Positions 1,313 to 60,460 of a stretch of 64,000 nt of DNA are shown here, piece after piece. The stretch lies in contig CAZCAO010000001.1 of assembly GCA_964496815.1 (NCBI GenBank), forward strand, positions 83,198 through 147,197, read 5' to 3'. Position numbers and translations under genes: made by a program. Position 1 is the first letter of the stretch, and each line of letters starts with the position of its first letter. This DNA is from an uncultured Candidatus Saccharibacteria bacterium (GTDB lineage Bacteria > Patescibacteriota > Saccharimonadia > CAILAD01 > JADZBC01). Under the pieces are notes generated by a model. That model saw only the letters and a list, made by a program, of their open reading frames with translations, was not told where the DNA came from and did not search any database.

Positions 1313-2095
1313 ATGACCGAAAAAACAACTGCCGCAAAGGCAACTACAAAAACTGACCCAATTCTGCAGGAATTGCTTGAATCTGGTGCGCACTTTGGCC
1401 ACCGCACAAGCCGATGGAATCCTAAAATGGGTGAATATATATTTGGCGCGCGAGGCGGAGTTCACATTATAGACCTTACATTGACTGCTGAAGGCCTCAA
1501 GGCTGCAGTAGACTTCGTGGAATCAATTACCCAGAAGGGTAAGCAGATTTTGTTTGTCGGCACTAAACGCCAGGCCAAAGGTATTATCGAGGCAGCCGCT
1601 AAGGAATCAGGTATGCCGTATGTAACACAGCGTTGGTTGGGTGGTATGTTGACTAATCTAGACACCATTAACACTCGTATTAACCGCTTAAAGCGCCTTG
1701 AAGCCCAGCAGCTTGATGGTAGCCTCGAGTCTTTAACTAAAAAAGAACGACTTGATATTAGTAATGAAATCGAGCGTTTGAACAAAATCTTCGGTGGAAT
1801 TCGCGAGATGCACGGATTGCCAGGTGCCATTTTCGTCATCGATGTGCCACGTGAGGAGATAGCCATCAAAGAGGCACGCAAGCTAGGCATCCCTGTAATT
1901 GCTATAACCGATACGAATGCCGACCCTGATTTAGCTGATTACGTTATACCCGCTAATGACGATGCTATTCGAGCGGTTAGCGTGATTAGCAACAAGATTG
2001 CTGCTGCGGCGAATCAAGGGGCATCGCTCTATAATGCCAAAACCAAGCAGGAAGAAGTCAAAGATAAGACCGAGGAGGAAGAAAGTGCCAATTAG
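1313..2095 (+). CDS. rpsB: 30S ribosomal protein S2
   Basis: AHFGHRTSRWNPKM uS2 motif. ATG 1313 is preceded by aaggag. The ORF-track start 1292 is probably too far upstream. Confidence 0.93.
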   Translation: MTEKTTAAKATTKTDPILQELLESGAHFGHRTSRWNPKMGEYIFGARGGVHIIDLTLTAEGLKAAVDFVESITQKGKQILFVGTKRQAKGIIEAAAKESGMPYVTQRWLGGMLTNLDTINTRINRLKRLEAQQLDGSLESLTKKERLDISNEIERLNKIFGGIREMHGLPGAIFVIDVPREEIAIKEARKLGIPVIAITDTNADPDLADYVIPANDDAIRAVSVISNKIAAAANQGASLYNAKTKQEEVKDKTEEEESAN

Positions 2096-2678
2096 TATTG
2101 ATGACATCAAAAAGCTCCGTCAAATGACCGGTGCAGGCATGATGGATGCCAAAAACGTACTCGAAGAAGCCAAGGGTGACATGGAGAAGGCAATAGAGCT
2201 AATGCGCGTAAAGGGCATGGCTAAGGCCGATAAGAAAGCTGATCGTGCAACCGAAAACGGACTCGTGGAAGCATATGTACACGGCGGTAAGATTGGCGTG
2301 CTTGTAGAGGTTGCCTGTGAGACTGATTTCGTGGCACGCACTGAGGAGTTCAAGGGCTTTGTACATGATCTAGCCATCCAAGTGGCTGCTAGCGCGCCGC
2401 TGTATTTGGATCGTAGCGCCGTTCCTGCAGAAGTTAGTGAAAAGGAAGCCAAGCTCTTTACCGACGAAGTCGTGGCTGGCGGCAAACCGGCCGAACATGC
2501 CGCCAAGATCGTGGAAGGTAAAATGAATAAGTATTATGCAGGTGTTTGCTTGATGGAGCAGCCGTTCGTCAAGGATCCAGACCGCAGTATTGAAACAATG
2601 CTTAAGGAGCTGATTGGTAAATTAGGCGAAAATATTGTCGTGCGTCGCTTTGCACGGATGGAATTGGGCGCTGAATAG
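2085..2678 (+). CDS. tsf: elongation factor Ts (short form)
   Basis: N-terminus IKKLRQMTGAGMMDAKNVLEE. GTG 2085 follows gaggagga and overlaps the rpsB stop. Classic rpsB-tsf pair. Confidence 0.9.
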   Translation: MPISIDDIKKLRQMTGAGMMDAKNVLEEAKGDMEKAIELMRVKGMAKADKKADRATENGLVEAYVHGGKIGVLVEVACETDFVARTEEFKGFVHDLAIQVAASAPLYLDRSAVPAEVSEKEAKLFTDEVVAGGKPAEHAAKIVEGKMNKYYAGVCLMEQPFVKDPDRSIETMLKELIGKLGENIVVRRFARMELGAE

Positions 2679-2696
2679 TTTTATAATCACAAGTAC

Positions 2697-3257
2697 ATGA
2701 TGGATACAATAATCTCTGCCGTAGAGGCAAAAATGCAAAAAGGATTAGCTTTCTTTCGCGAGGAGCTTGGCCATATACGTGGTGGGCGAGCTCAAGTGGG
2801 TTTAGTTGATTCTGTGAAGGTTGAAGTATATGGCCAGGAAATGACCCTAAAGCAAGTAGCAACCGTTTCAACCCCGGATGCCCGTACGATTATGATTCAG
2901 CCTTGGGATAAGGGTAATATGGCTAGTATCGAGAAGGCCATTCGTGAAAACCAAAGTCTTGGCCTAAACCCGTCAAACGACGGTAATGTGATTCGCTTGA
3001 ACGTACCCGCTCTGACCGAGGAGCGACGAGCTGAATTGGCAAAATCACTCAATGCAAAGCTCGAAGAATGCCACATTGCATTGCGCAGTGCACGCCATGA
3101 CGGTATGGACGAAGCCAAAAAGAAGAAAAACAACAAAGAGCTAACCGAAGACGATCTTTATGCTATCGAACAAGGTCTCAATAAGTTGATTGAAAAGTAC
3201 CAGTCGGAGGCCCAAAAAGAGCTTGCTGCCAAGCAAAAAGAAATCATGGAGGTCTAA
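2697..3257 (+). CDS. frr: ribosome recycling factor
   Basis: 186-aa RRF-like sequence (VKVEVYGQEMTLKQVATVSTPDARTIMIQPWD) in the tsf-frr-uppS order. Confidence 0.9.
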   Translation: MMDTIISAVEAKMQKGLAFFREELGHIRGGRAQVGLVDSVKVEVYGQEMTLKQVATVSTPDARTIMIQPWDKGNMASIEKAIRENQSLGLNPSNDGNVIRLNVPALTEERRAELAKSLNAKLEECHIALRSARHDGMDEAKKKKNNKELTEDDLYAIEQGLNKLIEKYQSEAQKELAAKQKEIMEV

Positions 3258-3967: not shown

Positions 3968-5049
3968 TGGTACTGACAATTCTATTTGTCCTTTTGACCT
4001 TCTCAGTACTTGTAATCGCGCATGAATTTGGCCACTTTATTGTGGCTCGGCGCAACGGTGTTCAAGTCGATGAGTTTGGCATTGGGTTCCCGCCAAAGAT
4101 CTGGGGCATGAAACGTGGCAAAACGCTCTACACAATCAACCTCCTGCCGCTCGGAGGCTTCGTTCGCCTCAAGGGCGAAGAAGGTGAATCAACCGCCAAA
4201 GACAGCTTTGGGGCACAGCGTGCCTGGGTGAAGGCCAAAATACTTTTGGCCGGCGTCACGGTTAACCTACTGATTGCCTATGTATTAATTACTACCCTGT
4301 TAATTGTAGGTATGCCACCACTCTTACCTCAAAAACTCCCAGTTGTACTCGGTATTCAGCCAGCTAGTTCCAGCAGTCAGTTAATGGTTGTGAACGTGGG
4401 GAAGAATAGTGTCGCTGCTACCGCCGGCATCAAAAGCGGAGACCGTATCATCGAGGTTAATGGAGATAAGGCCAGTACTCCAGAGGCGCTCAAGGCGAGC
4501 GTGGATAGACTCGCAGGAGATACGGCGACGATATTGATTACGCAAGGTGGTACTACTCGTACTCTTGATGTGGCGTTACCCGAGAAAACAGCAGACAAGG
4601 CGCTGTTGGGTGTTTCGACTGTGCCAGAAAGCTTGCAACGCTATCCATGGTATATCGCTCCGGTTGCTGGTGTAATGATAATTTTACAAATGATATGGGC
4701 CACGCTTGGTGCTTTTGGGGGTATGATCATTGGTCTATTTACGCGGGCAGAAGTTTCGCAAACTGTCACGGGCCCAATTGGCATAACCGCAATATTTAGT
4801 GAGGTGCTCAAATATGGCAAAAGTTACGTAATTGCCCTTATTGCCTCGGTCTCATTGTCTTTGGCAATTATTAATGCCCTGCCGCTACCGGCATTAGACG
4901 GCGGTCGATTGCTCGTCGTAGTGCTACAGAGATTCGGGCTTAAGATTACTGATCGAACCGAGGCCATCATTCATATGCTAGGCTTCGTAGCGTTAATCGG
5001 ATTGATGATTATCGTGTCAGCCGCTGACATTATTCGACTCAGCCGCTAG
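3967..5049 (+). CDS. rseP: site-2 (M50) zinc metalloprotease RseP family
   Basis: HEFGH zinc motif in TM1, a central PDZ-like segment, and NALPLPALDGG near the C-terminus. Confidence 0.88.
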   Translation: MVLTILFVLLTFSVLVIAHEFGHFIVARRNGVQVDEFGIGFPPKIWGMKRGKTLYTINLLPLGGFVRLKGEEGESTAKDSFGAQRAWVKAKILLAGVTVNLLIAYVLITTLLIVGMPPLLPQKLPVVLGIQPASSSSQLMVVNVGKNSVAATAGIKSGDRIIEVNGDKASTPEALKASVDRLAGDTATILITQGGTTRTLDVALPEKTADKALLGVSTVPESLQRYPWYIAPVAGVMIILQMIWATLGAFGGMIIGLFTRAEVSQTVTGPIGITAIFSEVLKYGKSYVIALIASVSLSLAIINALPLPALDGGRLLVVVLQRFGLKITDRTEAIIHMLGFVALIGLMIIVSAADIIRLSR

Positions 5050-5107
5050 CTAGATTCCCGGCGATATACCTTGCCGGTGGTACCTTGGGCTTGTTACACT
5101 GGTAGTA

Positions 5108-7476: not shown

Positions 7477-9450
7477 GTGAATATATTTGGTGATTTCTAT
7501 AATCGCGCATATAGCTATAAGCAGTCTCGTCACGAGCAGCAAGTCGTACATAGCGAAGACTGGTCGGCAGCTGTATTAACTGGTAGCGAGCAAGCGGGAA
7601 AACTAGAGCAGCCTTTGTCGGGGCGCTATCTGCGATTCTTTTTGCTGTCAGGGGCTGTTGCGATGGCTATTTTGGCTGTACAGCTATTTTATGTACAAAT
7701 TACACGCGGCCAGCAAAACCTAGTCTTAGCAAACGGTAATAGAATTCGACAAACAACTGTGCGGGCACCACGCGGGGCGATATATGATCGAAATAAGCAA
7801 ATTCTGGCACGCAATCTTGCCAGCTTTGATTTAGTAGTTAATCCTTCGCAAATGCCACGTGACAAGGCTGAGCGAGGACAGGTTTATAGCGTCGTTGCTA
7901 GTCTCGTCGGTCAGTCTGTAGAGGAGGTTCAGAAAAAAGCCGAAGCAAAAGGCAAAAACTTTACTCAGAACATCCTCATAGCAAGCAACCTAGACCGAGA
8001 GACTGCACTCAACATTGAAGAAAAGTCGCGTCAGATGACAGGCTTTAATATAGACATTAATCCGTCTCGAGAGTACCTTGATTCTGGTTCCTTTGCTCAT
8101 TTTCTCGGTTACACCGGCAGAATCTCGGCCGAAGAATGGCGTTCTAATCCTTCATACCAGCCGACTGATTACATCGGCAAAAACGGTCTCGAACAGGCCT
8201 ATGAGGCCGAGCTGAAGGGTAAGGATGGGAAAAAGCAAGTAGAGGTTGATGCACAGGGCAGGCAGATTCGCGAACTCGCTGCTGTCCCGGCCGAACCTGG
8301 CAACAGCTTGGTATTGTCGGTTGACAGTGGGTTAGAAAAGAAGCTTGCACAGGAGCTGCAGGCAGGCGCCGAGCGCGCCGGTGCCAAACGTGCCGCAGCA
8401 GTAGCGATGGATCCCCGAAATGGTCAGATTCTGGCCGCAGTTAACTGGCCCAGCTATGATAACAACCTTTTTGCTAAAGGAATTAGCACAGCCGATTATC
8501 AAAAGCTATTAAATGACCCGGGGAACCCGTTGTTTAATAAGGTCGCCGGCGGTCGCTACCCGGTCGCGTCGACTATTAAGCCTTTTGTGTCGGTCGCGGC
8601 TCTCGAAGAGCAGATTATCAATGAAAGCACAACAATTAAAGACGAAGGCAAGATTGACGTCGTTAATAAATACAACTCCTCAATTGTCTACACCTATCGT
8701 GGTTGGGAAGCCGCTGGGCTCGGCCCCGTTAATGTCGTAAAAGCTATTGCGAAGAGTTCTGACGTGTTTTATTACATAGTCGGCGGTGGCTTTGAGAATT
8801 TCCGTGGTCTGGGCGTAGACAAGCTTCTGAGCTGGTATAAGAAGTTCGGCCTGGGGTCTAAGACAGGTATTGATTTAGCCAATGAGTCAGCTGGCTATTT
8901 GCCGAACCCAAGTGATAAAAAGGCTCAGACTGGTGAGCCCTGGTATGTGGGTGACACTTACAACATTTCAATTGGTCAGGGAAATTTGCAAGCTACCCCA
9001 TTGCAGCTTGTTACTGCTACCGCTGCGATTGGCAATGGCGGAACGCTATACAAGCCACGCTTGGCAAAAGAAGTTGTTAACCAGCAAGGCGAGCGAGTTC
9101 GCGAAATCAAACCAGAAGTGGTCGCTACTAACTTTATTAACCCCAAAAACCTAGCAGTTGTTCAACAGGGCATGCGCGAGGTGGTCTTGAGTGGAACGGC
9201 CTGCTGTCGCATGAAGTCGGAAGTGCCTGTTAGCGTAGCCGGCAAAACTGGTACAGCCGAAACGTCATCGGCCGGTCAGGATGGCAAAAACACCCGTACC
9301 AAGCCGCATGCCTGGTTTACATCCTACGCCCCAGCCGAAAATCCAGAGATCGCTATGGTTGTCCTGATTGAGTATGCCGGGGAGGGGGCAGAGTATGCTG
9401 CTCCAGTCACGCGTGAGACCCTAAAATGGTACTTTGGCGGCCGCCCATAG
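7477..9450 (+). CDS. mrdA: penicillin-binding protein 2 (class B transpeptidase)
   Basis: STIKPF (SxxK), SSD (SxN-like) and KTGTAE (KTG) motifs, N-terminal TM segment, position after mreBCD. Confidence 0.88.
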   Translation: MNIFGDFYNRAYSYKQSRHEQQVVHSEDWSAAVLTGSEQAGKLEQPLSGRYLRFFLLSGAVAMAILAVQLFYVQITRGQQNLVLANGNRIRQTTVRAPRGAIYDRNKQILARNLASFDLVVNPSQMPRDKAERGQVYSVVASLVGQSVEEVQKKAEAKGKNFTQNILIASNLDRETALNIEEKSRQMTGFNIDINPSREYLDSGSFAHFLGYTGRISAEEWRSNPSYQPTDYIGKNGLEQAYEAELKGKDGKKQVEVDAQGRQIRELAAVPAEPGNSLVLSVDSGLEKKLAQELQAGAERAGAKRAAAVAMDPRNGQILAAVNWPSYDNNLFAKGISTADYQKLLNDPGNPLFNKVAGGRYPVASTIKPFVSVAALEEQIINESTTIKDEGKIDVVNKYNSSIVYTYRGWEAAGLGPVNVVKAIAKSSDVFYYIVGGGFENFRGLGVDKLLSWYKKFGLGSKTGIDLANESAGYLPNPSDKKAQTGEPWYVGDTYNISIGQGNLQATPLQLVTATAAIGNGGTLYKPRLAKEVVNQQGERVREIKPEVVATNFINPKNLAVVQQGMREVVLSGTACCRMKSEVPVSVAGKTGTAETSSAGQDGKNTRTKPHAWFTSYAPAENPEIAMVVLIEYAGEGAEYAAPVTRETLKWYFGGRP

Positions 9451-49527: not shown

Positions 49528-52233
49528 TTAAGCTGTTTGTTTTGACGCAAAGTCGCGTTTGTGAGTGGCGCCGAACTCAGTCGTATTGACGGTAGATTTT
49601 TCAACCTGAGATGCAGCCAGAGTACGCAGATAGTAAGTTGTTTTAAGTCCCATCTTCCAGGCGTATACGTATGCGTCCGAAAGTTTCTTGCCCGATACGC
49701 CACGCATGAATATGTTCAGCGACTGACTCTGGTCGATCCATTTACCCCTGTAGGCGGCAGCCTTGATGAGCCACTCAGGTTCAATTTCGAATACTTCTTT
49801 GTATTTGGCGCGGATTTCAGCCGGAATTTCAGCTATCTGTTGAATACTGCCATCGTAGTATTTAATTTTATTCAACATTGCCTGATCCCAGAGACCACAG
49901 GCCTTAAGATCATCAATCAAGTAGCCGTTGAGGACGGTAAAGTCACCACTCATGTTTGATTTCACATACAGGTTCTTATAGATCGGCTCAATGCATGGTG
50001 TACAGCCGGCTACGTTGGCAATCGAAGCCGTTGGTGCAATTGCCATCACGTTTGAGTTGCGCATACCATACTTTTTGACTGAGTCGCGAACGGGCTTCCA
50101 GTCGAGTTTGCCTTTACGGCTGATGTCGAGCTTGATACCGCGTTCACGCTCGAGGATGTCAAGTGTGTCAACTGGAAAAATGTTGCGATCCCACTTGGAG
50201 CCCTTATACGTTTTGTAGGTGCCTCGTTCTTTGGCAAGTTCGCTCGATGCCAAAATAGCGTGGTAGGAAATCATTTCCATACTTTCGTCGGCAAAGGCTA
50301 CCGCTTCCTCAGAAGCGAAGTCGATATTCTGCATATAGAGAGCGTCTTGGTGGCCCATAATGCCGAGCCCAACTGGTCGGTGATTCATATTGGCGCGCTC
50401 GGTTTCCTTGGTGACGTAGTAGCAGATATCGATGACGTTATCGAGCATACGTACGGCGTTAGACACAGTATCACGCACGAGTTCGGCGTCGAGCTTGCCG
50501 TCCTTCATGTGGCGAGCTAAGTTGACGGACCCCAAGTTGCATACGGCGGTTTCATCCTTGGAGTTATTAAGGGTAATTTCGGTACACAGATTGGAGTTAT
50601 GAACGACGCCGACGTGGTCTTGAGGTGAGCGAAGGTTACTCGGATCTTTGAAGGTTATCCAGGGGTGACCAGTCTCAAACAACATAGAGAGCATTTTTCG
50701 CCACAGTCCTGCAGCCGATACGCGCTTGAACAGTTTAATTTCACCTTTGTCAGCTAGCTTTTCGTATTCCTTGTAGCGCTTCTCGAATGCCTTGCCGTAT
50801 ATATGGTGCAGGTCTGGTGTTTCATCTGGCGAGAATAGTGTCCATTCAGCATCCTCGAGTACGCGCTTCATAAACAAGTCTGGAATCCAGTTCGCAGTAT
50901 TGATGTCGTGCGTACGTCTACGCTCGTCACCAGTGTTTTTGCGTAGCTCCAAAAAGTCCTCGATGTCTAGGTGCCACGATTCCAAATACACGGCCGTGGC
51001 ACCAATGCGTCGTCCACTTCGAGCAATCGCTACTGTTGAGTCATTAGCAATTTTTAAGAAAGGCACCACGCCTTGGCTTGCTACATCGACCGTCTTAATT
51101 TGCGATCCAGTGGCACGAATGTTGGACCAGTCTGTTGCGATACCACCTGAAAATTTAGACATGAGCGCAGTATCCAGGTAGACCTTGTAGATATGCTTTA
51201 GATCATCTTCGACAGTATTGAGGAAGCACGAACTGAGCTGGGAAAAATTAGTACCTGAATTAAACAGGGTTGGGCTAGAGGTCACATACCGCAAGCTTGA
51301 GAGCACGTCATAGAATTTAATTGCCCAGTCGGTTTTGTCCTTCTTTTCTAGAATGGCCATGCCCATAGCGACACGCATCCAGAAGTACTGCGGCAGCTCA
51401 AGTACGTCTTTGCGCTCTGCAGTGCGCAAAAAGTAATTGCCATAGAGGACATGAAGTCCCATGTAGTCGAGCAGGTTGTCGCGATCTAGTTGGAGGGCTG
51501 CGCCTAATTTTTCGAGGTCGAAATCGAGCATACGTTTATCAAGTCGCCTGGTAGCTACGGCGTTCTTTACGAAGTCAGTAAACTGGGCGCGATATTGCTC
51601 TCGTGCATCCTGGCCCTTTTTGATCGTTAGTACTTCGCGGTAGAGTTTGCGCATCAGCAGGCGAGAGGCGAGCAGGGAATAAGCCTTGTCTCGCTCTATA
51701 TACGCCTTGGTGGCCATAATCATGGCGTCTTCAAGTTCAGCTGTTGTCATACCGTCATAGAGGTTCGTTTTGACGGCTTGAGCCAGCTCATCCACATCAA
51801 CGTCCTTATCTAGCCCATCAGCGGCAATGAGTAGATCTTTCACCAATCGTGCATAGCTAAACATATTTTCGCTACCATCTTTGCTAATGATGCGGAGTTC
51901 ACTGTGCTCGAGTTTGTGGGAACTATCTCGCTCCGCAGCTTCGCGCGCTGCTTGTCGGGTATCGCGATAAACGATATAGGTACGGGCAGTTTGATAATGC
52001 CCGCTGCGCATGAGTTCTTGTTCGACCAGGTCTTGAATCGTCTCCACGTCTGGCAGGTCGTCCGCAAACATAGTTTCTAGATTGGATACTACCGTTTCTG
52101 CCAAGAGCGCGACGTCCTCACTCGGTACTTCGCCGCCGGCGGCTTGACTGGCTTTGCCAATGGCGACTTCTATTCTGGTGGCGTCGAATTCTACAACCGA
52201 CCCATTGCGTTTTTTTATTTGCGAAAAACTCAT
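49528..52233 (-). CDS. nrdA: ribonucleotide reductase class I alpha subunit with N-terminal ATP-cone(s)
   Basis: ATG 52233 follows aggagggtg. ATP-cone IKKRNGSVVEFDATRI. NLCTEI active-site motif. Confidence 0.93.
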   Translation of the reverse strand: MSFSQIKKRNGSVVEFDATRIEVAIGKASQAAGGEVPSEDVALLAETVVSNLETMFADDLPDVETIQDLVEQELMRSGHYQTARTYIVYRDTRQAAREAAERDSSHKLEHSELRIISKDGSENMFSYARLVKDLLIAADGLDKDVDVDELAQAVKTNLYDGMTTAELEDAMIMATKAYIERDKAYSLLASRLLMRKLYREVLTIKKGQDAREQYRAQFTDFVKNAVATRRLDKRMLDFDLEKLGAALQLDRDNLLDYMGLHVLYGNYFLRTAERKDVLELPQYFWMRVAMGMAILEKKDKTDWAIKFYDVLSSLRYVTSSPTLFNSGTNFSQLSSCFLNTVEDDLKHIYKVYLDTALMSKFSGGIATDWSNIRATGSQIKTVDVASQGVVPFLKIANDSTVAIARSGRRIGATAVYLESWHLDIEDFLELRKNTGDERRRTHDINTANWIPDLFMKRVLEDAEWTLFSPDETPDLHHIYGKAFEKRYKEYEKLADKGEIKLFKRVSAAGLWRKMLSMLFETGHPWITFKDPSNLRSPQDHVGVVHNSNLCTEITLNNSKDETAVCNLGSVNLARHMKDGKLDAELVRDTVSNAVRMLDNVIDICYYVTKETERANMNHRPVGLGIMGHQDALYMQNIDFASEEAVAFADESMEMISYHAILASSELAKERGTYKTYKGSKWDRNIFPVDTLDILERERGIKLDISRKGKLDWKPVRDSVKKYGMRNSNVMAIAPTASIANVAGCTPCIEPIYKNLYVKSNMSGDFTVLNGYLIDDLKACGLWDQAMLNKIKYYDGSIQQIAEIPAEIRAKYKEVFEIEPEWLIKAAAYRGKWIDQSQSLNIFMRGVSGKKLSDAYVYAWKMGLKTTYYLRTLAASQVEKSTVNTTEFGATHKRDFASKQTA

Positions 52234-52268
52234 TCTCACCCTCCTAAATATTTGTGTTGTTATGATAA

Positions 52269-52314
52269 ACACTATATATAGTGGTTACGTTCGCGTCAAC
52301 ACCACCACACGTGT
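52269..52314. promoter_or_regulatory. candidate tandem NrdR boxes upstream of nrdA
   Basis: acactatatatagtgg (52269-52284) and acaccaccacacgtgt (52299-52314), starts 30 nt apart, 35-80 nt upstream of the nrdA start. Confidence 0.35.
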
Positions 52315-52442: not shown

Positions 52443-52517
52443 GGTCCCATCGTCTAGCGGTTAGGACGCCAGGTTCTCATCCTGGTAACCGGGGTTCGAT
52501 TCCCCGTGGGATCACCA
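52443..52517 (+). tRNA. tRNA-Glu (anticodon CTC), CCA encoded
   Basis: GGTCCCA-TC-GTCT-AGCGGTTA-GGAC..CCAGG-TTCTCAT-CCTGG..CGGGG-TTCGATT-CCCCG-TGGGATC-A-CCA. Confidence 0.93.
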
Positions 52518-52519
52518 AG

Positions 52520-52560
52520 CATAAGCATTATCAACGAAGACTCCGAAAGGGGTCTTTTGT
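52520..52560 (+). repeat. direct repeat DR-1 (41 nt) abutting tRNA-Glu, contains a terminator hairpin
   Basis: cataagcattatcaacgaagactccgaaaggggtcttttgt. Matches 54518-54560 with 1 mismatch and 1 indel. Confidence 0.9.
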
Positions 52561-52574
52561 GTTAGGATTGGGCT

Positions 52575-53045
52575 ATGTTTATATATACTTTTGCTAGCTT
52601 CCCGGACAAAGAAAGACTGCACGACATTTCCAAGGAAGTGTTTGTGTTCTCTAATCAGCTGCGTAGTGACATGGAAGAGCTTAAGCAGGGACTCATAGAG
52701 AAGGCTCCGGAGCATATCATTGGTATCGCAAAGTCTAGGGGAACGAGCAGATACGAACCCGTAGCTGTAAACAAGTTTCACCATGGGACTGTGATTAAAG
52801 GCGGGCCAGACGTTCTTCACCTGACTGTTCCCAACGAACGAGTGGGTGGCCTGGTTACTTCACGAAGGTCCTCACGAACGTTTTGCAACTGGACCGCGTA
52901 TCACGTGCAGACGTTTATATCCAGCGAGTTGCCCGACACAACATTCAGCTTCGTTCATCTTAACCCAAGAGACACAGGCGCTTTTGTGAGGAATATTTTG
53001 CAGCAGAAGTCCGGCTGGGAACATTGTGGTAATATCAATCCATGA
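52575..53045 (+). CDS. hypothetical protein, possibly pyroglutamyl-peptidase (C15)-like
   Basis: SRTFCNWTAY and FSFVHLNP resemble the Cys and His motifs of C15 peptidases. Short (156 aa), so the call is tentative. Confidence 0.4.
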   Translation: MFIYTFASFPDKERLHDISKEVFVFSNQLRSDMEELKQGLIEKAPEHIIGIAKSRGTSRYEPVAVNKFHHGTVIKGGPDVLHLTVPNERVGGLVTSRRSSRTFCNWTAYHVQTFISSELPDTTFSFVHLNPRDTGAFVRNILQQKSGWEHCGNINP

Positions 53046-53677
53046 AACTACTACTTACATCTGCCGGCATAAGGAACCAAGACTTAGCCAACGCACTAGC
53101 TGAATTGGTTGGAAGACCTGCTACAGAGACAAAAGTGGGGCTCATACCCACTGCAGAGAACGTAGAGCAGGGAAGCAAAGACTTCTTACTAAGTCAGTAC
53201 GATAGTCTTAGAAGCCATGGCTACAACTGGATAGACATCATTGACCCATCTGCAGAAGGGACCAACTGGAAAGGCAGGCTTGAGGCGGTAGACACTATTT
53301 TTGTTAGTGGAGGTAATACTTTTCACCTGCTTAACGAGGTTCGTAGAACTGGTTTTGGAGAATGGCTGAAGTGTAATATACAGTATAAGGTATACGTTGG
53401 GGTTAGCGCGGGCTCGATTATTGTTACTCCCAGCATTGCCGTTGCGTCCATCGACGACGGTGACGAGAACACAGTTGGCCTAACTGACTTAACTGGTCTT
53501 GGACTTGTTGATTTCGAGGTCTCGCCGCATTCGCCTGAATGGGTCAGCTACGAGGCAAATGAAGTGTATGCAAAAAGCATTACTAACAGGCTCCACCTAA
53601 TAGACGACGAAACGGGTCTCGTGATTGTCGATGCGTCTATTACGGTAGTCGGGCAGGGGAAGCACAAGGTTATCTAG
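53042..53677 (+). CDS. peptidase S51 (dipeptidase E family)
   Basis: GGNTFHLL and GVSAGSII (nucleophile Ser) motifs. Confidence 0.75.
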   Translation: MKLLLTSAGIRNQDLANALAELVGRPATETKVGLIPTAENVEQGSKDFLLSQYDSLRSHGYNWIDIIDPSAEGTNWKGRLEAVDTIFVSGGNTFHLLNEVRRTGFGEWLKCNIQYKVYVGVSAGSIIVTPSIAVASIDDGDENTVGLTDLTGLGLVDFEVSPHSPEWVSYEANEVYAKSITNRLHLIDDETGLVIVDASITVVGQGKHKVI

Positions 53678-53688
53678 CAAGCTTTGCC

Positions 53689-54420
53689 TTAGAGACTCTT
53701 TGCATATTCGTAAAACACATAGTCGTCTGCGTGTAACTGCTCAAACTTCTTGATAAACTCGTCGCTCAATTCAGGTAGTATCTCAGTATCGAAGTGGTTG
53801 AGAATGGGGGCATGCTTATCTTGAGTTATAAGGTCAGTTTTTCTCGCGAACGCAGACAGTTTCTCTGTAGTCCCTATCGCTTCGTATATAGAGGGGTCAG
53901 TACCCGTGGCTTGAGTCTGGTAATTAGCTAATGCTGGTAATAGAGCAAACTCCTCGAAAGTCATCTTCGCATCATAGGGCGGAGCGAATCGATGGCCCAC
54001 ATCCCCCTTGTGTCCCCTCCAATAGCGATAGTGGGACCACATTCTATCTAATGGCTCTCTGACAATCGTTCTATACTGGTGCTCAGCCACAGGTAAGTAT
54101 GGAATCATTTGAGCCGTCGCAACATGGCCGATGACTACTTTCATTTTCTTGAGGTCTTCAGGAGATATAGCTTGCTTTCGCCGCCGATTATTACGTCTCG
54201 TAACTAACATCCGCTTTATATTGGGTAGCCATGTCGTAATGGCTTTATATAGCTTTAACTGCCAGTTCTTTGTGTAATTGGCTGTGTGGATACTGTATGG
54301 AGCAAAGATTCCGTCTCTGATAAGAAAATGCGCCATATGAGAGCCGCCATACTTATCTTCATATAGCTTCTGCAGTGTGACCCCACCAGTCTTTTCAACG
54401 TGTATGTGTACTATTGTCAT
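53689..54420 (-). CDS. sulfotransferase-family protein
   Basis: N-terminal HIHVEKTGGVT (PAPS 5'-phosphosulfate loop type). Confidence 0.6.
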   Translation of the reverse strand: MTIVHIHVEKTGGVTLQKLYEDKYGGSHMAHFLIRDGIFAPYSIHTANYTKNWQLKLYKAITTWLPNIKRMLVTRRNNRRRKQAISPEDLKKMKVVIGHVATAQMIPYLPVAEHQYRTIVREPLDRMWSHYRYWRGHKGDVGHRFAPPYDAKMTFEEFALLPALANYQTQATGTDPSIYEAIGTTEKLSAFARKTDLITQDKHAPILNHFDTEILPELSDEFIKKFEQLHADDYVFYEYAKSL

Positions 54421-54517
54421 AGAAGCTCATTTTACCCCAAAGCCTATTTCTTGTCCCCACCAACTCATCATCTCGCTGAGCAGAGTGTTCCAATTCGATA
54501 TCGTATGGTTCATCAAT

Positions 54518-54560
54518 CATAAGCATTATCAACGAAGACTCCGAAAGGAGTCTTTTTGTA
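54518..54560 (+). repeat. direct repeat DR-2 (copy of 52520-52560)
   Basis: cataagcattatcaacgaagactccgaaaggagtctttttgt. Confidence 0.9.
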
Positions 54561-54624
54561 TTTCAGCTTTAAAATTTCTAGATTGGGGTATAATTGATCT
54601 GTCCTCGGTTCGTCTATCAAGGGA

Positions 54625-54846
54625 ATGAACATCGTGAGTCCAGGATTAGTTGCGGTCTATGTTCTGCTGGGGATAACGGCTGCGTGTCTCCTCGTCGCCC
54701 TCTTCACCTACAAGACCAACTTCTGGCGGGGATGGTTCAATCCATGGACTCATCGTCCGTGGTACAAGCTCGGGCTTCTCCCACTGGTTCCCGCCTTCTT
54801 TACCTTCCTCTACCACGTCAGCGGCCTCCAAGTCTGGCTCAAGTAG
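54625..54846 (+). CDS. small membrane protein (73 aa, 2 TM segments)
   Basis: Two hydrophobic helices. TATAAT about 35 nt upstream. Moderately GC-rich. Confidence 0.5.
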   Translation: MNIVSPGLVAVYVLLGITAACLLVALFTYKTNFWRGWFNPWTHRPWYKLGLLPLVPAFFTFLYHVSGLQVWLK

Positions 54847-54959
54847 GGGGCTCGAGGGAGCATTGGGCGATTGAGGCCGTCAAAAATGCGGAGGGGTGAA
54901 GTGGCAACAGGGCCCACCCCAGAGCGACTTGAGAAATATCTCGAGTCGCTTATTTCGTT

Positions 54960-55376
54960 CTAGAACTTGAAGAAGATGTATGGTTTACGCATAAACACAG
55001 TCCCATGATGTTCTTTGGGACTCGTCTTGATAAGGTGAGTGTGCTGATGGGGCACAGAGCGCATAGTACTGTTCACTCCTCGCGCATAGACGTTATAGCC
55101 CTTTGCTTCATACTCCGCGAATATCTTCATCAGGTCAGCAGCCTCATTAGCTGTTAGCTCCGAAAGCTTAAGGACATGACGTTTAGGCAGAACTAATAAG
55201 TGATCCTTCACATCACGAGCTTCCCATAAATCGTACGAGGTCTTGTTTGGTACAATGTAGGCGTGATCTGTCTCGATAAACTTACGTTTTTTCAGCTCTT
55301 CAACATTGCAGAACGGACACGAGGCAGGGCGAAGATGTTTTTTATACTCTTTGCGGGTCTTGGGGTAGTGGAACAT
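54960..55376 (-). CDS. HIT-family nucleotide hydrolase/transferase
   Basis: HQHTHL histidine-triad motif. ATG 55376 lies 6 nt after a TATAAT (55383-55388, minus strand). The ORF-track GTG 55391 overlaps that box. Confidence 0.75.
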   Translation of the reverse strand: MFHYPKTRKEYKKHLRPASCPFCNVEELKKRKFIETDHAYIVPNKTSYDLWEARDVKDHLLVLPKRHVLKLSELTANEAADLMKIFAEYEAKGYNVYARGVNSTMRSVPHQHTHLIKTSPKEHHGTVFMRKPYIFFKF

Positions 55377-55483
55377 AGGGCAATTATACACGAGTTTGCT
55401 GCTCAGCGTTGTGCTGATTGCTCTATCTCTTAGCGAGGTATTTCTTCGGTCATCATTTCTTAGTATTGTGATACTATCTATTC

Positions 55484-56512
55484 ATGCAAGACCCTACGCC
55501 ACGCCTGAATACCAGTTCCGAACAAAATGTCATTCCACTGGCGAACCAGGTAGAAATTCGCAATTCCTTAAGCGAACACGTTGAGTGTGTGATCGAGCCT
55601 GGCGTGACACGGTATTGGGACGAGTTTCGCGTTCATGCTGAGCCGCATACTATAGCAATAGACGGTTATGTCGAAGGGCCGATTCAGCGTGATTTGCAGC
55701 GCAAGGTTATAAATCTAAACCATCACGAACGAGTTGATCGTTCATCTACGCTTGCAACCTGTCAGCAGGCACTTTTTGAGATCCGTCGCGGCTTATTTGG
55801 CGCACTGCAGCAAGACGGTGAATTTAAGGCAAAAATATGCATGAATGATTGTGATGAAGATGTCTGCACCACAGTGTTCATCCTGCGGCACCCTGAATTC
55901 TCGGCCAAGATAGACAACCCAGCTTTGAACCGATTAGTCGAAATGGAAGGGATTATGGACGTAACCGGTGGGTTCTATCCATGGCCCCAGAGCTACCCAA
56001 GCCTGGCGGAATTCTTCTGGGTATACCAGCCATACCATGAGTTCCGTAATTCTGGCGGATTGAGCCGACAAAACCCAGACGAATATCAGGCGGTTATAGA
56101 CGCGGTGGGCGAACGAATTGAGCAGCATATTACCGGCCAAGGCGGGTCTATCGAGCTCGATACACGCTACACTAAGCTCGCGCAGCAAGGTATATGGACA
56201 ATGGTAGAAGAAACCGGTCAGCACGCAAAAGTCGGTATGTTATCAGATGGTATACAGGCATTTACGAGCGTAAGCGAACTACCGAATGGCCGATACAAAT
56301 ATAGCGTTGGCAGGCTCTCTCCCTACATTCCTTTTGACCTGAATAGCCTGTATGCTTACCTTAATGACCTCGAGGGCCTTACCGGCGAAGATTGCTGGGG
56401 TGGGGGAGACACCATTGGTGGCAGCCCACGCAATGCCGGTAGCTCTATTGCCCCGTCACAAATGGCAGAGATTGTGCAGCGTTTCATTACTCCGAATAGA
56501 CCCATGAACTAG
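55484..56512 (+). CDS. hypothetical protein (342 aa)
   Basis: Long ORF with backbone-like composition. No motif I can assign. Confidence 0.6.
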   Translation: MQDPTPRLNTSSEQNVIPLANQVEIRNSLSEHVECVIEPGVTRYWDEFRVHAEPHTIAIDGYVEGPIQRDLQRKVINLNHHERVDRSSTLATCQQALFEIRRGLFGALQQDGEFKAKICMNDCDEDVCTTVFILRHPEFSAKIDNPALNRLVEMEGIMDVTGGFYPWPQSYPSLAEFFWVYQPYHEFRNSGGLSRQNPDEYQAVIDAVGERIEQHITGQGGSIELDTRYTKLAQQGIWTMVEETGQHAKVGMLSDGIQAFTSVSELPNGRYKYSVGRLSPYIPFDLNSLYAYLNDLEGLTGEDCWGGGDTIGGSPRNAGSSIAPSQMAEIVQRFITPNRPMN

Positions 56513-56716: not shown

Positions 56717-57199
56717 ATGATTCTGGAAAGGATCATTTTGACCACAGCAACCACGGCGCCCCACAAGGCGCCTGAACTGTCCATCGACTACAACGCCCTC
56801 GCCCTTGGCCTGAGGGTCATCAGCTCCAGCATGAGCGCAAACAATAAGGCTGCGGCTTTTCGGATCATCACAGAGAACTTCCGAGATCAGACTTGGGGGA
56901 CTTACACGTCGGGCGTGGTCGACATCCTGCTGAAGATCCTCGCGATGATCGATTCCAACGGGGACCGGATGGTGCCTCATGCAGCGGCGCGATTCATCGT
57001 CGAAGGCATGCAGCGCAGCATGCTGGAGGTGTTGAGGGAGGCATTCGTAGCCTCCCAAGACGAGGGGCATCAGCGCAAGCTGGTCCCACATCCTGGCGTG
57101 TACGGACTCGAAGCCTTTCTGGCATGCGAACTCGGGTTCATCGTGGCGGATGCCACGTACCACTTCGACGACGAGCCTCTCGCAAGCCAGCCGGCCTAG
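56717..57199 (+). CDS. GC-rich hypothetical protein (160 aa)
   Basis: Strong GC3 bias from about codon 12 onward. The first ~36 nt have backbone-like composition. The antisense 168-aa ORF is judged spurious. Confidence 0.6.
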   Translation: MILERIILTTATTAPHKAPELSIDYNALALGLRVISSSMSANNKAAAFRIITENFRDQTWGTYTSGVVDILLKILAMIDSNGDRMVPHAAARFIVEGMQRSMLEVLREAFVASQDEGHQRKLVPHPGVYGLEAFLACELGFIVADATYHFDDEPLASQPA

Positions 57200-59731: not shown

Positions 59732-60418
59732 CTAGCTGCGTGCTGTGTCGATGCGGAACTCGTCCACCACCACGCGCTTGCTGAACCCGGGGTCACCTGG
59801 GTATTGCACCATCACGTCGTAGACGAAGGTCAGCTTGTTGCCTTCCACCCCCTCCTCACGAAGAGCGTGTTCAGTCAGTCGCTTTTCCTTGATCTCCGAT
59901 TCTCCCCAGCTCTGTGTCTGGTAACCCCAACCGTCGATCAGGGTCTTGCTGAACCCCTCGATAGAGAAGACCTCGTCGTAGATCCGACCGTTGGTCGCCA
60001 GAAAGCCTGGCTGGTTGCCCGAATGCAGGCTGTCGTCCATCGAGTCCTGGAGGAGTCCATCGAGCCCCTGCTTGCTTCCCAGCAGCGAGATGTCAACATG
60101 GACATGTTCGATGTAAGCCACCAGGCCTTCGCCGCCCACGGTGGGCACCACGCGCGCCTGGAAGCGAATCGTCTTCGGCTTGGTGATCCGCCACGACTTG
60201 GTGTCGTAGTCGGTCGTGTAGGTCGTGACGAACTTGTACTTCTCACCAGGAACGACAGTCTCCCTGCGCAGTGCGCCTTCGCTGAGGTCGTTGCGCAAGC
60301 GCTCGAGCTTGGTGTCTGCCGGCGTAGTAGCCGATTGCTCCGAACCGGAACAGGCCACAAGGCCCAGCAAGAGCCCGGCCAAGATCAAGAGCCCGGCAAT
60401 GCGTCGCTTGGTAATCAA
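59732..60418 (-). CDS. GC-rich lipoprotein, function unknown
   Basis: Lipobox LVAC-SG after ITKRRIAGLLILAGLLLG. Strong GC3 bias. The start is TTG 60418 or ATG 60457; ATG 60457 lies only 3 nt from the -10 box. Confidence 0.7.
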   Translation of the reverse strand: MITKRRIAGLLILAGLLLGLVACSGSEQSATTPADTKLERLRNDLSEGALRRETVVPGEKYKFVTTYTTDYDTKSWRITKPKTIRFQARVVPTVGGEGLVAYIEHVHVDISLLGSKQGLDGLLQDSMDDSLHSGNQPGFLATNGRIYDEVFSIEGFSKTLIDGWGYQTQSWGESEIKEKRLTEHALREEGVEGNKLTFVYDVMVQYPGDPGFSKRVVVDEFRIDTARS

Positions 60419-60460
60419 ATTCCCATTCCTTCGTGTAGGTGCCAGAAACTGAACCATACT

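Follow-up and report, generated by a model that had tools for sequence, protein, structure and literature searches.

Patescibacteria have tiny genomes and few recognised mobile elements, and their gain of accessory genes is poorly understood. In Neisseria, minimal mobile elements exchange cassettes by homologous recombination in conserved flanks. Integration of an Islander-type island splits a tRNA gene, the island restores the gene, and the displaced fragment forms the direct repeat at the far end (PMC4383910). Cis-mobilizable elements (CIMEs) keep both attL and attR and have lost their integration and transfer genes (PMC6323972). We analysed a stretch of 64,000 nucleotides (nt) from an uncultured Candidatus Saccharibacteria bacterium (contig CAZCAO010000001.1, positions 83,198 to 147,197; hereafter the window), in which a tRNA-Glu(CTC) gene is followed by a three-gene segment of 2 kb between direct repeats. 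Around this tRNA gene we observe the repeat and its cargo, an empty site in relatives, a module of ~110 nt that recurs at other junctions, and no recombinase locally. We tentatively regard the segment as a degenerate or non-autonomous islet associated with the tRNA, which would have recombined in at an attachment-site-like (att-like) module, with a recombinase acting in trans or since lost.

A repeat search of the region from 50 to 57 kb returned only one strong direct-repeat family, 50 nt long (52509-52558 and 54507-54556), 92% identical without gaps and with a spacing of 1998 nt. Both copies contain the 31-mer CATAAGCATTATCAACGAAGACTCCGAAAGG unchanged (52520-52550 and 54518-54548); with up to three mismatches allowed it had 2 matches in the 64 kb and 0 in 100 dinucleotide-preserving shuffles. 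On the 3' side of the exact 31-mer the copies differ by one G/A mismatch and one extra T. The coordinates, the mismatch and the extra T given in a preliminary description of this DNA were all reproduced by repeat and pattern search, whereas its start of the repeat, 3 nt after the CCA of the tRNA, was wrong. Similarity reaches leftward to include the final 9 nt of the tRNA (GGATCACCAAG versus GGTTCATCAAT, 7 of 11 positions matching), so the repeat does lie almost wholly downstream of the tRNA, as described there, but overlaps its end. Both copies, named R1 (proximal) and R2 (distal), fold into the terminator hairpin that had been proposed, with 9 bp and a U run (-14.2 and -15.4 kcal/mol, z -3.3 and -4.5); a simple terminator scan flagged the distal copy alone. 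The 42-mer is not a common terminator within the 64 kb, where it has two copies only. R1 and R2 are ~95% identical over a 43-nt core and far better kept than the adjoining non-coding DNA, which argues for a recent duplication or selection.

The same strain is represented by three ENA contigs (L081-L083; related loci are cited by such handles throughout) and by the Logan contig L159, all of which match the window at 100% identity. Contig ends were considered as a signal of excision, L083 ending at 54517 and L159 at 54547, and rejected, as such ends carry no biological signal; the end of L159 lies inside the 31-nt exact repeat and is therefore read as an assembly break, a 31-mer assembly being assumed.

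The relatives were compared with the window at the tRNA-Glu locus, as the preliminary description had proposed. Their NrdA identity to the window is 95% for L087 and L088, 92% for L001, 91% for L089, 84-85% for L090, L092 and L091, 79% for L084 and ~65% for L129 and L105, and tRNA-Glu(CTC) adjoins nrdA in every relative having sequence upstream of nrdA. In L089 the identical 75-nt tRNA is followed by 34 nt and then by the 3' end of a HIT-family gene, where the window has 2442 nt (52518-54959). In L001, 188 nt separate tRNA-Glu from HIT, and the three cargo genes are absent here as well; HIT itself is 94% identical in both relatives. Other cargo occupies the site elsewhere: after the tRNA, L087 and L088 differ from the window in both terminator and genes, and L090 and L091 are different again. 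The relatives without the segment indicate a real insertion, and the opposite case, in which all relatives would carry the same three genes without repeats, does not hold.

The first cargo gene, ORF1, lies beside the tRNA in the window and in the most distant member of the clade, L084, and is absent from the relatives with NrdA identities of 95, 92 and 91%, a patchy distribution. Searches of the fetched loci with tblastn found ORF1 only in the L084 lineage, whereas a 73-amino-acid (aa) open reading frame (ORF) and a 342-aa protein further to the right are confined to the window. By the same method the whole zone from 52.5 to 60.5 kb is a mosaic among the relatives, with HIT, p160, p101, p190 and a PEMT-like gene shared patchily. 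Since the three genes are missing from L089 and L001 and other cargo is found elsewhere, they are not a fixed ancestral feature, and the flank of the tRNA is a plasticity zone. These comparisons identify the DNA immediately 3' of tRNA-Glu(CTC) as a hot spot of recombination, where the accessory genes differ from lineage to lineage.

The tRNA itself was followed further. The 75-nt tRNA-Glu is 100% identical in L087, L088, L089, L097, L105 and L129. A metagenome scan with the 3' half of the tRNA returned mostly tRNAs of other phyla, the informative loci being L097, L105, L129 and L114 (2 mismatches). Two alleles of tRNA-Glu(CTC) with different T-arms were noted, one of 75 nt in the window, L087, L089, L097, L105 and L129, and one of 76 nt in L001, L090, L091 and a second copy in L088. 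Their distribution conflicts with the NrdA phylogeny, the 75-nt allele being identical at ~65% NrdA identity and the 76-nt allele occurring in closer relatives, which suggests that the tRNA-Glu gene itself has been replaced by recombination. In the more distant relative L097, the gene nearest to the identical tRNA-Glu and its R1-like terminator is NucS_C/MrcB_N/PD-(D/E)XK nuclease-like (1909-2829, minus strand), so the hot spot may also hold defence-type cargo. Nearly the same tail and terminator as in R1 follow tRNA-Glu in L084 and L086, and a related version is found at the second copy in L088 and in L097; R1 is thus, on comparative grounds, the native terminator of tRNA-Glu, conserved in relatives.

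Comparison with the relatives further revealed that R2 makes up the right side of a larger conserved unit, the module of ~110 nt (~54448-54557). A profile of the module finds four copies (one in the window, two in L085 and one in L089) at E values from 1e-23 to 1e-29, and R1-type sequences only through the shared right part. In L084 and L086 a homologue of ORF1 and a 78-aa gene lie directly after the tRNA and its terminator. The 1237-nt contig L085 carries the same ORF1 cassette preceded by the module (...CCAACCCATTATCTCGCTAATCAATGTGTTCCAATTCGATATCGCATGGTTCACCAAGCATAAGCATTATCAAGGAAGACTCC...) instead of the tRNA, and ends in a second module copy. In L089 the module copy lies just past the HIT start and has its own terminator. 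The module thus lies at cassette junctions in three lineages. The two L085 copies have an identical core and differ at ~9 positions of the far left arm; a shared core with differing arms is as expected of att sites. The match to the tRNA tail reaches 10 of 11 nt in the L085 copies.

The 60-nt left box of the module is ~85-90% conserved between lineages whose ORF1 proteins are just 66% identical, and a minus-strand gene begins 10-95 nt to its left in all four copies. It holds a micro-ORF with the consensus (M/V)NH(T/A)ISNWNTL(L/I)SE(M/I)M(S/G)W, and one frame per strand is open in 4/4 copies. The 20 variable columns of the box fall 10/1/9 by codon phase (p ~0.01 after frame choice, from four copies only), and this 3-periodic conservation could reflect a micro-protein borne by the module or a binding platform. 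The micro-ORF sequences diverge fully after codon 18-19 and have no obvious ribosome-binding site. The left box has no Rfam match and no significant similarity to tRNA. Two further identities of the unit were rejected. A small RNA was dismissed because RNAalifold found no covariation, the terminator alone was conserved and the single-sequence z was only -2.1; a decayed tRNA-Glu or pseudo-tRNA was dismissed because the alignment scores of the distal unit are at shuffle level and it has no Rfam tRNA match, the contiguous tail alone being retained. L090 has a weak module-like match (E 0.012-0.09) that contains stop codons.

Independent integration-type scars are found at the same tRNA in other genomes. 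In L090 (9514-9699) a perfect 19-nt direct repeat, extending from the T-loop to the CCA, surrounds a 148-nt insert; L001 (9601-9773) has the same 19-nt repeat arrangement at 89%, and L091 (~8960-9150) has a homologous insert. In the JGI contig L114 (oriented ~4830-5050), which has a tRNA with 2 nt differences, 16 nt of its 3' end and the terminator (~45 nt) recur on either side of a G-rich insert of ~140 nt; to judge by this layout, L114 has the architecture of the window with almost no cargo. L088, in which NrdA is identical to that of its sister strain L087, contains a second copy of tRNA-Glu, of the nrdA promoter with NrdR box and of a truncated nrdA 5' end with the ATP-cone, only 75-78% identical to the other copies. 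This second copy borders a 6-kb segment that encodes a TraG-like coupling protein along with an 815-aa orphan and carries a bAvd-like gene (copy and segment together at L088:2100-3000 and L088:2883-7600), and foreign DNA evidently came with its own copy of the locus.

Two side observations concern such scars. The insert of ~150 nt, which lies between the 76-nt tRNA-Glu and the 3'-end repeat, is homologous in L090, L001 and L091 and has no match in Rfam; it would be a small RNA or else the scar of an old integration. The IMG/VR viral contig L160 (120-190) contains a partial tRNA-Glu(UUC), its 3' half beginning at the anticodon stem and ending with the CCA, which precedes a terminator. An amidase/M15 lysin gene is ~0.7 kb away, and the partial tRNA resembles an att-type tRNA fragment of a phage, unrelated to the lineage of the window.

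An islet of the kind proposed above would arise as follows. Circular DNA carrying one module would recombine with the tRNA-proximal copy in a Campbell-type insertion, which would leave duplicated repeats resembling attL and attR. The likeliest catalyst would be a site-specific recombinase, probably of the tyrosine type, encoded elsewhere or since lost, and the resulting segment would be comparable to a CIME. We infer the circular intermediate and the enzyme, as well as any continued mobility, from this arrangement of sequences. A site-specific recombinase is favoured by the short and precise tRNA-end repeats of L090 and L114, by the sharp boundaries of the module and by the identical cores and diverged arms in L085; in our judgement, a 19-nt repeat is short for RecA-dependent recombination.

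Several results weigh against such an islet. R1 is merely the tRNA's own terminator, kept in relatives, and the repeat lies almost entirely outside the tRNA, with the tRNA-like part of the distal copy matching at 7 of 11 nt. When the left part of the module was aligned locally to the tRNA, 1062 of 2000 shuffles reached the observed score. The right edge of the insertion relative to L089 and L001 is the stop codon of HIT and not R2, and the expected pre-insertion state (tRNA, single repeat, 73-aa ORF, HIT) was not seen among the relatives examined. The sister-species loci L087 and L088 diverge at a point without repeats, which implies that other mechanisms also operate here. The GC content and the GC content at third codon positions (GC3) of all three cargo genes equal the values of core genes.

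The machinery is likewise missing. Pfam scans found no integrase (Phage_integrase), recombinase, resolvase or transposase domain in 50 sizeable ORFs of the window, in agreement with the preliminary description, which had noted that no integrase is present. No recombinase was found among the annotated genes of L087-L091 or the scanned ORFs of L088, L097, L129 and L154, the flank of L001 and several smaller ORFs lying outside the scan. The repeat and module patterns are absent from the viral contigs, the left-box pattern is absent from JGI metagenome contigs, and the segment matches phages and plasmids (blastn) only by its tRNA. Related loci, viral contigs and phage and plasmid collections contain no autonomous integrative and conjugative element (ICE), integrative and mobilizable element (IME) or phage using the same site, the rest of the genome being outside this search; no intact parent element was found.

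The site-specific island integration suggested by the preliminary description is thus borne out in part. The insertion relative to the closest relatives, the hot spot and the clean tRNA 3'-end repeats of L090 and L114 speak for it; the lack of a recombinase and of a detectable displaced tRNA fragment, the native composition, the identity of R1 as the tRNA's terminator and the indel edge at the HIT stop codon do not.

A close rival, which we regard as possible but somewhat doubtful, is RecA-mediated exchange after natural transformation through the conserved anchors nrdA, tRNA-Glu, terminator and module. To give the repeat, a homology anchor would then have been duplicated, either through Campbell insertion or through homology-facilitated illegitimate recombination, and in their behaviour the cassettes would resemble the minimal mobile elements known from competent bacteria. 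Natural competence and insertion through flanking homology have been demonstrated experimentally in Saccharibacteria (PMC10633639), and the absence of a recombinase at every locus examined fits such an exchange, as do the mosaic from 52.5 to 60.5 kb and the second anchor copy in L088, which at 75-78% identity flanks a foreign segment of 6 kb. The native composition of the cargo also agrees with it and would probably indicate a close relative as donor. However, transformation by double crossover alone makes no flanking direct repeats and would need a circular intermediate or an unequal crossover. The repeats that end exactly at the CCA, 19 nt in L090 and 16 nt plus terminator in L114, are short and precise for RecA, and the boundaries of the module are sharp and identical across four contexts.

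An ancestral arrangement with differential loss is unlikely. According to it, ORF1 at least, if not all three genes, would have resided there for long together with a terminator that was duplicated locally, relatives would have lost them by deletion, and the repeat would be the remnant of a tandem duplication with no role in mobility. The order of tRNA-Glu, R1-type terminator and ORF1 is indeed common to the window and the distant L084 and L086, with an intergenic region ~85% conserved (hand count, two sequences); the native composition of the cargo and the lack of any mobility gene found are also compatible with long residence. Yet at least 3-4 independent losses would be needed (in the lineages of L087/L088, L001, L089 and L090/L091), and if the DNA between R1 and R2 were deleted, the tRNA would be followed by a single repeat and the 73-aa ORF, an arrangement that L089 does not show. 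In L085 the ORF1 cassette is displaced from the tRNA by a module copy, so cassettes move relative to the tRNA. The ~95% identity of R1 and R2 over the 43-nt core, to be explained by recent duplication or selection, also argues against two old copies.

Going beyond the islet, the ~110-nt module, composed of the 60-nt box, a heptamer resembling the tRNA tail and the terminator, could be the recombination site of an undescribed cassette-capture system of Saccharibacteria, which would stack small cassettes 3' of tRNA-Glu in an integron-like manner, with the tRNA as dock and the recombinase elsewhere; we consider this quite improbable. It is very unlikely that the module is itself a functional unit, namely a gene for a small RNA together with its terminator, or else a micro-ORF or leader that would regulate the adjacent minus-strand gene; it would then be repeated for its usefulness, and the cassette boundaries would be incidental. 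In favour are the strong conservation of its left box relative to ORF1, the 3-periodic variable sites in a frame open in every copy and the constant position of a minus-strand gene start to its left; against are the lack of covariation, of a conserved fold besides the terminator and of an Rfam match, a micro-ORF that lacks an obvious ribosome-binding site and diverges after codon 18-19, and the thin statistics of four copies.

The features of the locus are compiled in Table 1.

Table 1. Features of the tRNA-Glu locus and its flanks (window coordinates)
Feature	Position	Strand	Basis
nrdA (class I ribonucleotide reductase alpha), conserved left anchor	49528..52272	-	Pfam annotation of identical L081 gene
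tRNA-Glu(CTC), 75 nt	52443..52517	+	ARAGORN; Rfam tRNA 61.7 bits
R1, proximal repeat copy: last 9 tRNA nt, spacer and intrinsic terminator hairpin	52509..52560	+	Repeat search, folding
ORF1, 156 aa, compact C15 (pyroglutamyl-peptidase I) fold protein	52575..53045	+	Profile, AF2, Foldseek
S51 peptidase (dipeptidase E / cyanophycinase family)	53042..53677	+	Pfam Peptidase_S51 E 2.5e-28; NCBIfam PepE below cut-off
Remotely sulfotransferase-like protein, 243 aa	53689..54420	-	Pfam Sulfotransfer_2 E 0.0085, below cut-off
28-codon micro-ORF in module (MNHTISNWNTLLSEMMSWW...)	54430-54513	-	Open frame; copies L085:47-100, L085:1165-1221, L089:9050-9103
Left box of boundary module, holds micro-ORF	54448..54517	.	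nhmmer profile of four copies: E 6e-28 in smaller search, 4e-27 in larger
R2, distal repeat copy: degenerate tRNA-tail-like 11 nt, spacer and terminator hairpin	54507..54560	+	Repeat search, terminator scan, folding
73-aa predicted membrane ORF	54625..54846	+	GC3 0.72, foreign-looking
Terminator-like hairpin, 13 pairs, abuts HIT 3' end	54922..54951	+	Terminator scan
HIT-family gene, first conserved gene right of insertion	54960..55391	-	Pfam HIT E 4.3e-8

The three cargo genes had been described as a C15-like peptidase, an S51 peptidase and a sulfotransferase on the opposite strand. ORF1 has no Pfam match of its own and one close homologue cluster only; an exhaustive phmmer search of 1.84 billion proteins yielded a family of 213 representatives of ~145 aa, for which no curated Pfam or NCBIfam model reaches threshold. 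An alignment of 60 homologues showed C104, N105 and H128 to be invariant and E61 nearly so, and among these 60, 27 have sub-threshold matches to Pfam Peptidase_C15. The family profile matches PDB pyrrolidone-carboxyl peptidases (E 2.8e-5) with aligned Glu, Cys-Asn and His motifs. The AlphaFold (AF2) model built on the homologue alignment has a pLDDT of 92, and a Foldseek search of the PDB with it places C15 enzymes at each of the top 34 ranks (E down to 4e-9, TM 0.65-0.76). Homologue alignment, PDB profile and Foldseek thus agree on a C15 fold with a conserved Glu61-Cys104-His128 triad, and the C15 assignment stands. ORF1 proteins are ~50 residues shorter than characterised pyroglutamyl peptidases and, as they also fall below the Pfam threshold, represent a distant compact C15 subfamily.

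The S51 assignment is likewise upheld by its Pfam match. The start of this gene overlaps the stop codon of ORF1 by 4 nt, and the two probably form an operon. For the third gene, location and minus strand were given correctly, but it is only weakly sulfotransferase-like and below the Pfam thresholds; in its family 7 of 18 members weakly match Sulfotransfer_1 and 4 of 18 Sulfotransfer_2. It has 19 homologues only, all ≤55% identical, from Patescibacteria and in unrelated contexts, on which grounds the idea that this gene is itself mobile was rejected. A compositional island was rejected as well, the GC and GC3 of the three genes being native.

The locus is flanked by gltX, nrdB and nrdA, and the best matches to NrdA bear the labels Patescibacteria or Candidatus Saccharibacteria. 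On the left, the nrdA promoter with its NrdR-box region faces tRNA-Glu. A palindromic box, ACACTATATATAGTG, lies upstream of nrdA at 52271-52300 and is kept in all relatives (L001, L084, L088, L091, L129); it is probably an NrdR operator. To the right, the 73-aa ORF lies beyond the repeat-bounded segment, yet within the 2442 nt missing from relatives, and tblastn detected no homologue in any fetched locus. Just past HIT, the 342-aa protein (55484-56512) has no Pfam or NCBIfam match and no homologue in the fetched relatives, and sits where the HIT upstream region of L089 has its module copy. Small genes of the variable zone (54625-54846, 56717-57199 and 59732-60457) have a GC3 of 0.72-0.76 versus ~0.45-0.54 in the core, and GC peaks occur at 56.7-58.0, 59.2-60.7 and 61.2-62.0 kb. 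These high-GC3 genes have the appearance of imports whose donor was rich in GC; since Saccharibacteria in culture grow on Actinobacteria, a transfer of high-GC genes from host to epibiont is possible.

The flank of tRNA-Glu is a plasticity site in this clade of Saccharibacteria, and the recurring junction sequence is a handle for its study. An accessory cassette that lacks an integrase and occupies a hot spot beside a tRNA gene is familiar in kind, here from a phylum that has been studied less, and two peptidases and a sulfotransferase-like enzyme are unremarkable cargo apart from ORF1, the sole noteworthy member, with its compact C15-fold family of about 200 representatives and no curated model. 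The recurring junction module is the sole element that could exceed the ordinary. If it is a recombination site, it would provide a naturally occurring place at which genetic tools could dock, in a phylum that became tractable only recently; if plain homologous recombination after transformation is at work, the locus would be a case of ordinary flank-anchored cassette exchange.

Regarded as an islet, the segment can be compared with several known systems. Like islands integrated into tRNA genes by tyrosine integrases (Islander), it adjoins the 3' end of a tRNA, has direct repeats, is missing in close relatives and brings accessory cargo, and in related genomes further repeats of the integration type occur at this tRNA. 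In contrast to such islands it has no integrase, the cargo consisting of the C15-like, S51 and sulfotransferase-like genes and the sizeable ORFs of the 64 kb containing none; its repeat is mainly the downstream terminator, there is no detectable tRNA fragment, and it has a length of 2 kb and native composition. With CIMEs it shares flanking putative att repeats and, according to the ORF scans of the window, the lack of recombination, integration and transfer genes, so that it would need a recombinase in trans; it differs in that no cognate ICE, IME or phage was found at the site and in that the att function of the repeats is putative.

Transposons, insertion sequences and miniature inverted-repeat transposable elements fit less well: the ends of the segment have no inverted repeats, the ORFs of the window encode no transposase, and in our judgement a direct repeat of 50 nt is too long for a target-site duplication. 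As for Xer/dif systems, the repeat contains by eye only ATAA-GCA-TTAT, with 4-nt arms and a 3-nt spacer, unlike the 11-6-11 arrangement of the 28-bp dif-like sites on which the host XerC/D acts, and the window has no Xer gene.

Integron arrays resemble the locus in having short cassettes split by a recurring element, here of ~110 nt, beside a fixed site, and in L085 at least two elements bracket one cassette, an array-like layout. The fixed site is a tRNA gene, however, and IntI, attI and Pc are lacking. Integron attC sites are imperfect palindromes of conserved structure and variable sequence, whereas the module is conserved in sequence and has a simple terminator hairpin only; integron cassettes are mostly single promoterless ORFs, whereas the segment has three genes on both strands. 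Like minimal mobile elements, the locus encloses strain-specific cargo without mobility genes between conserved flanks (nrdA and tRNA-Glu on one side, the PEMT-like gene and others on the other) in a naturally competent phylum (PMC10633639). Such elements need no flanking direct repeats, whereas here the repeat and the module mark the junctions.

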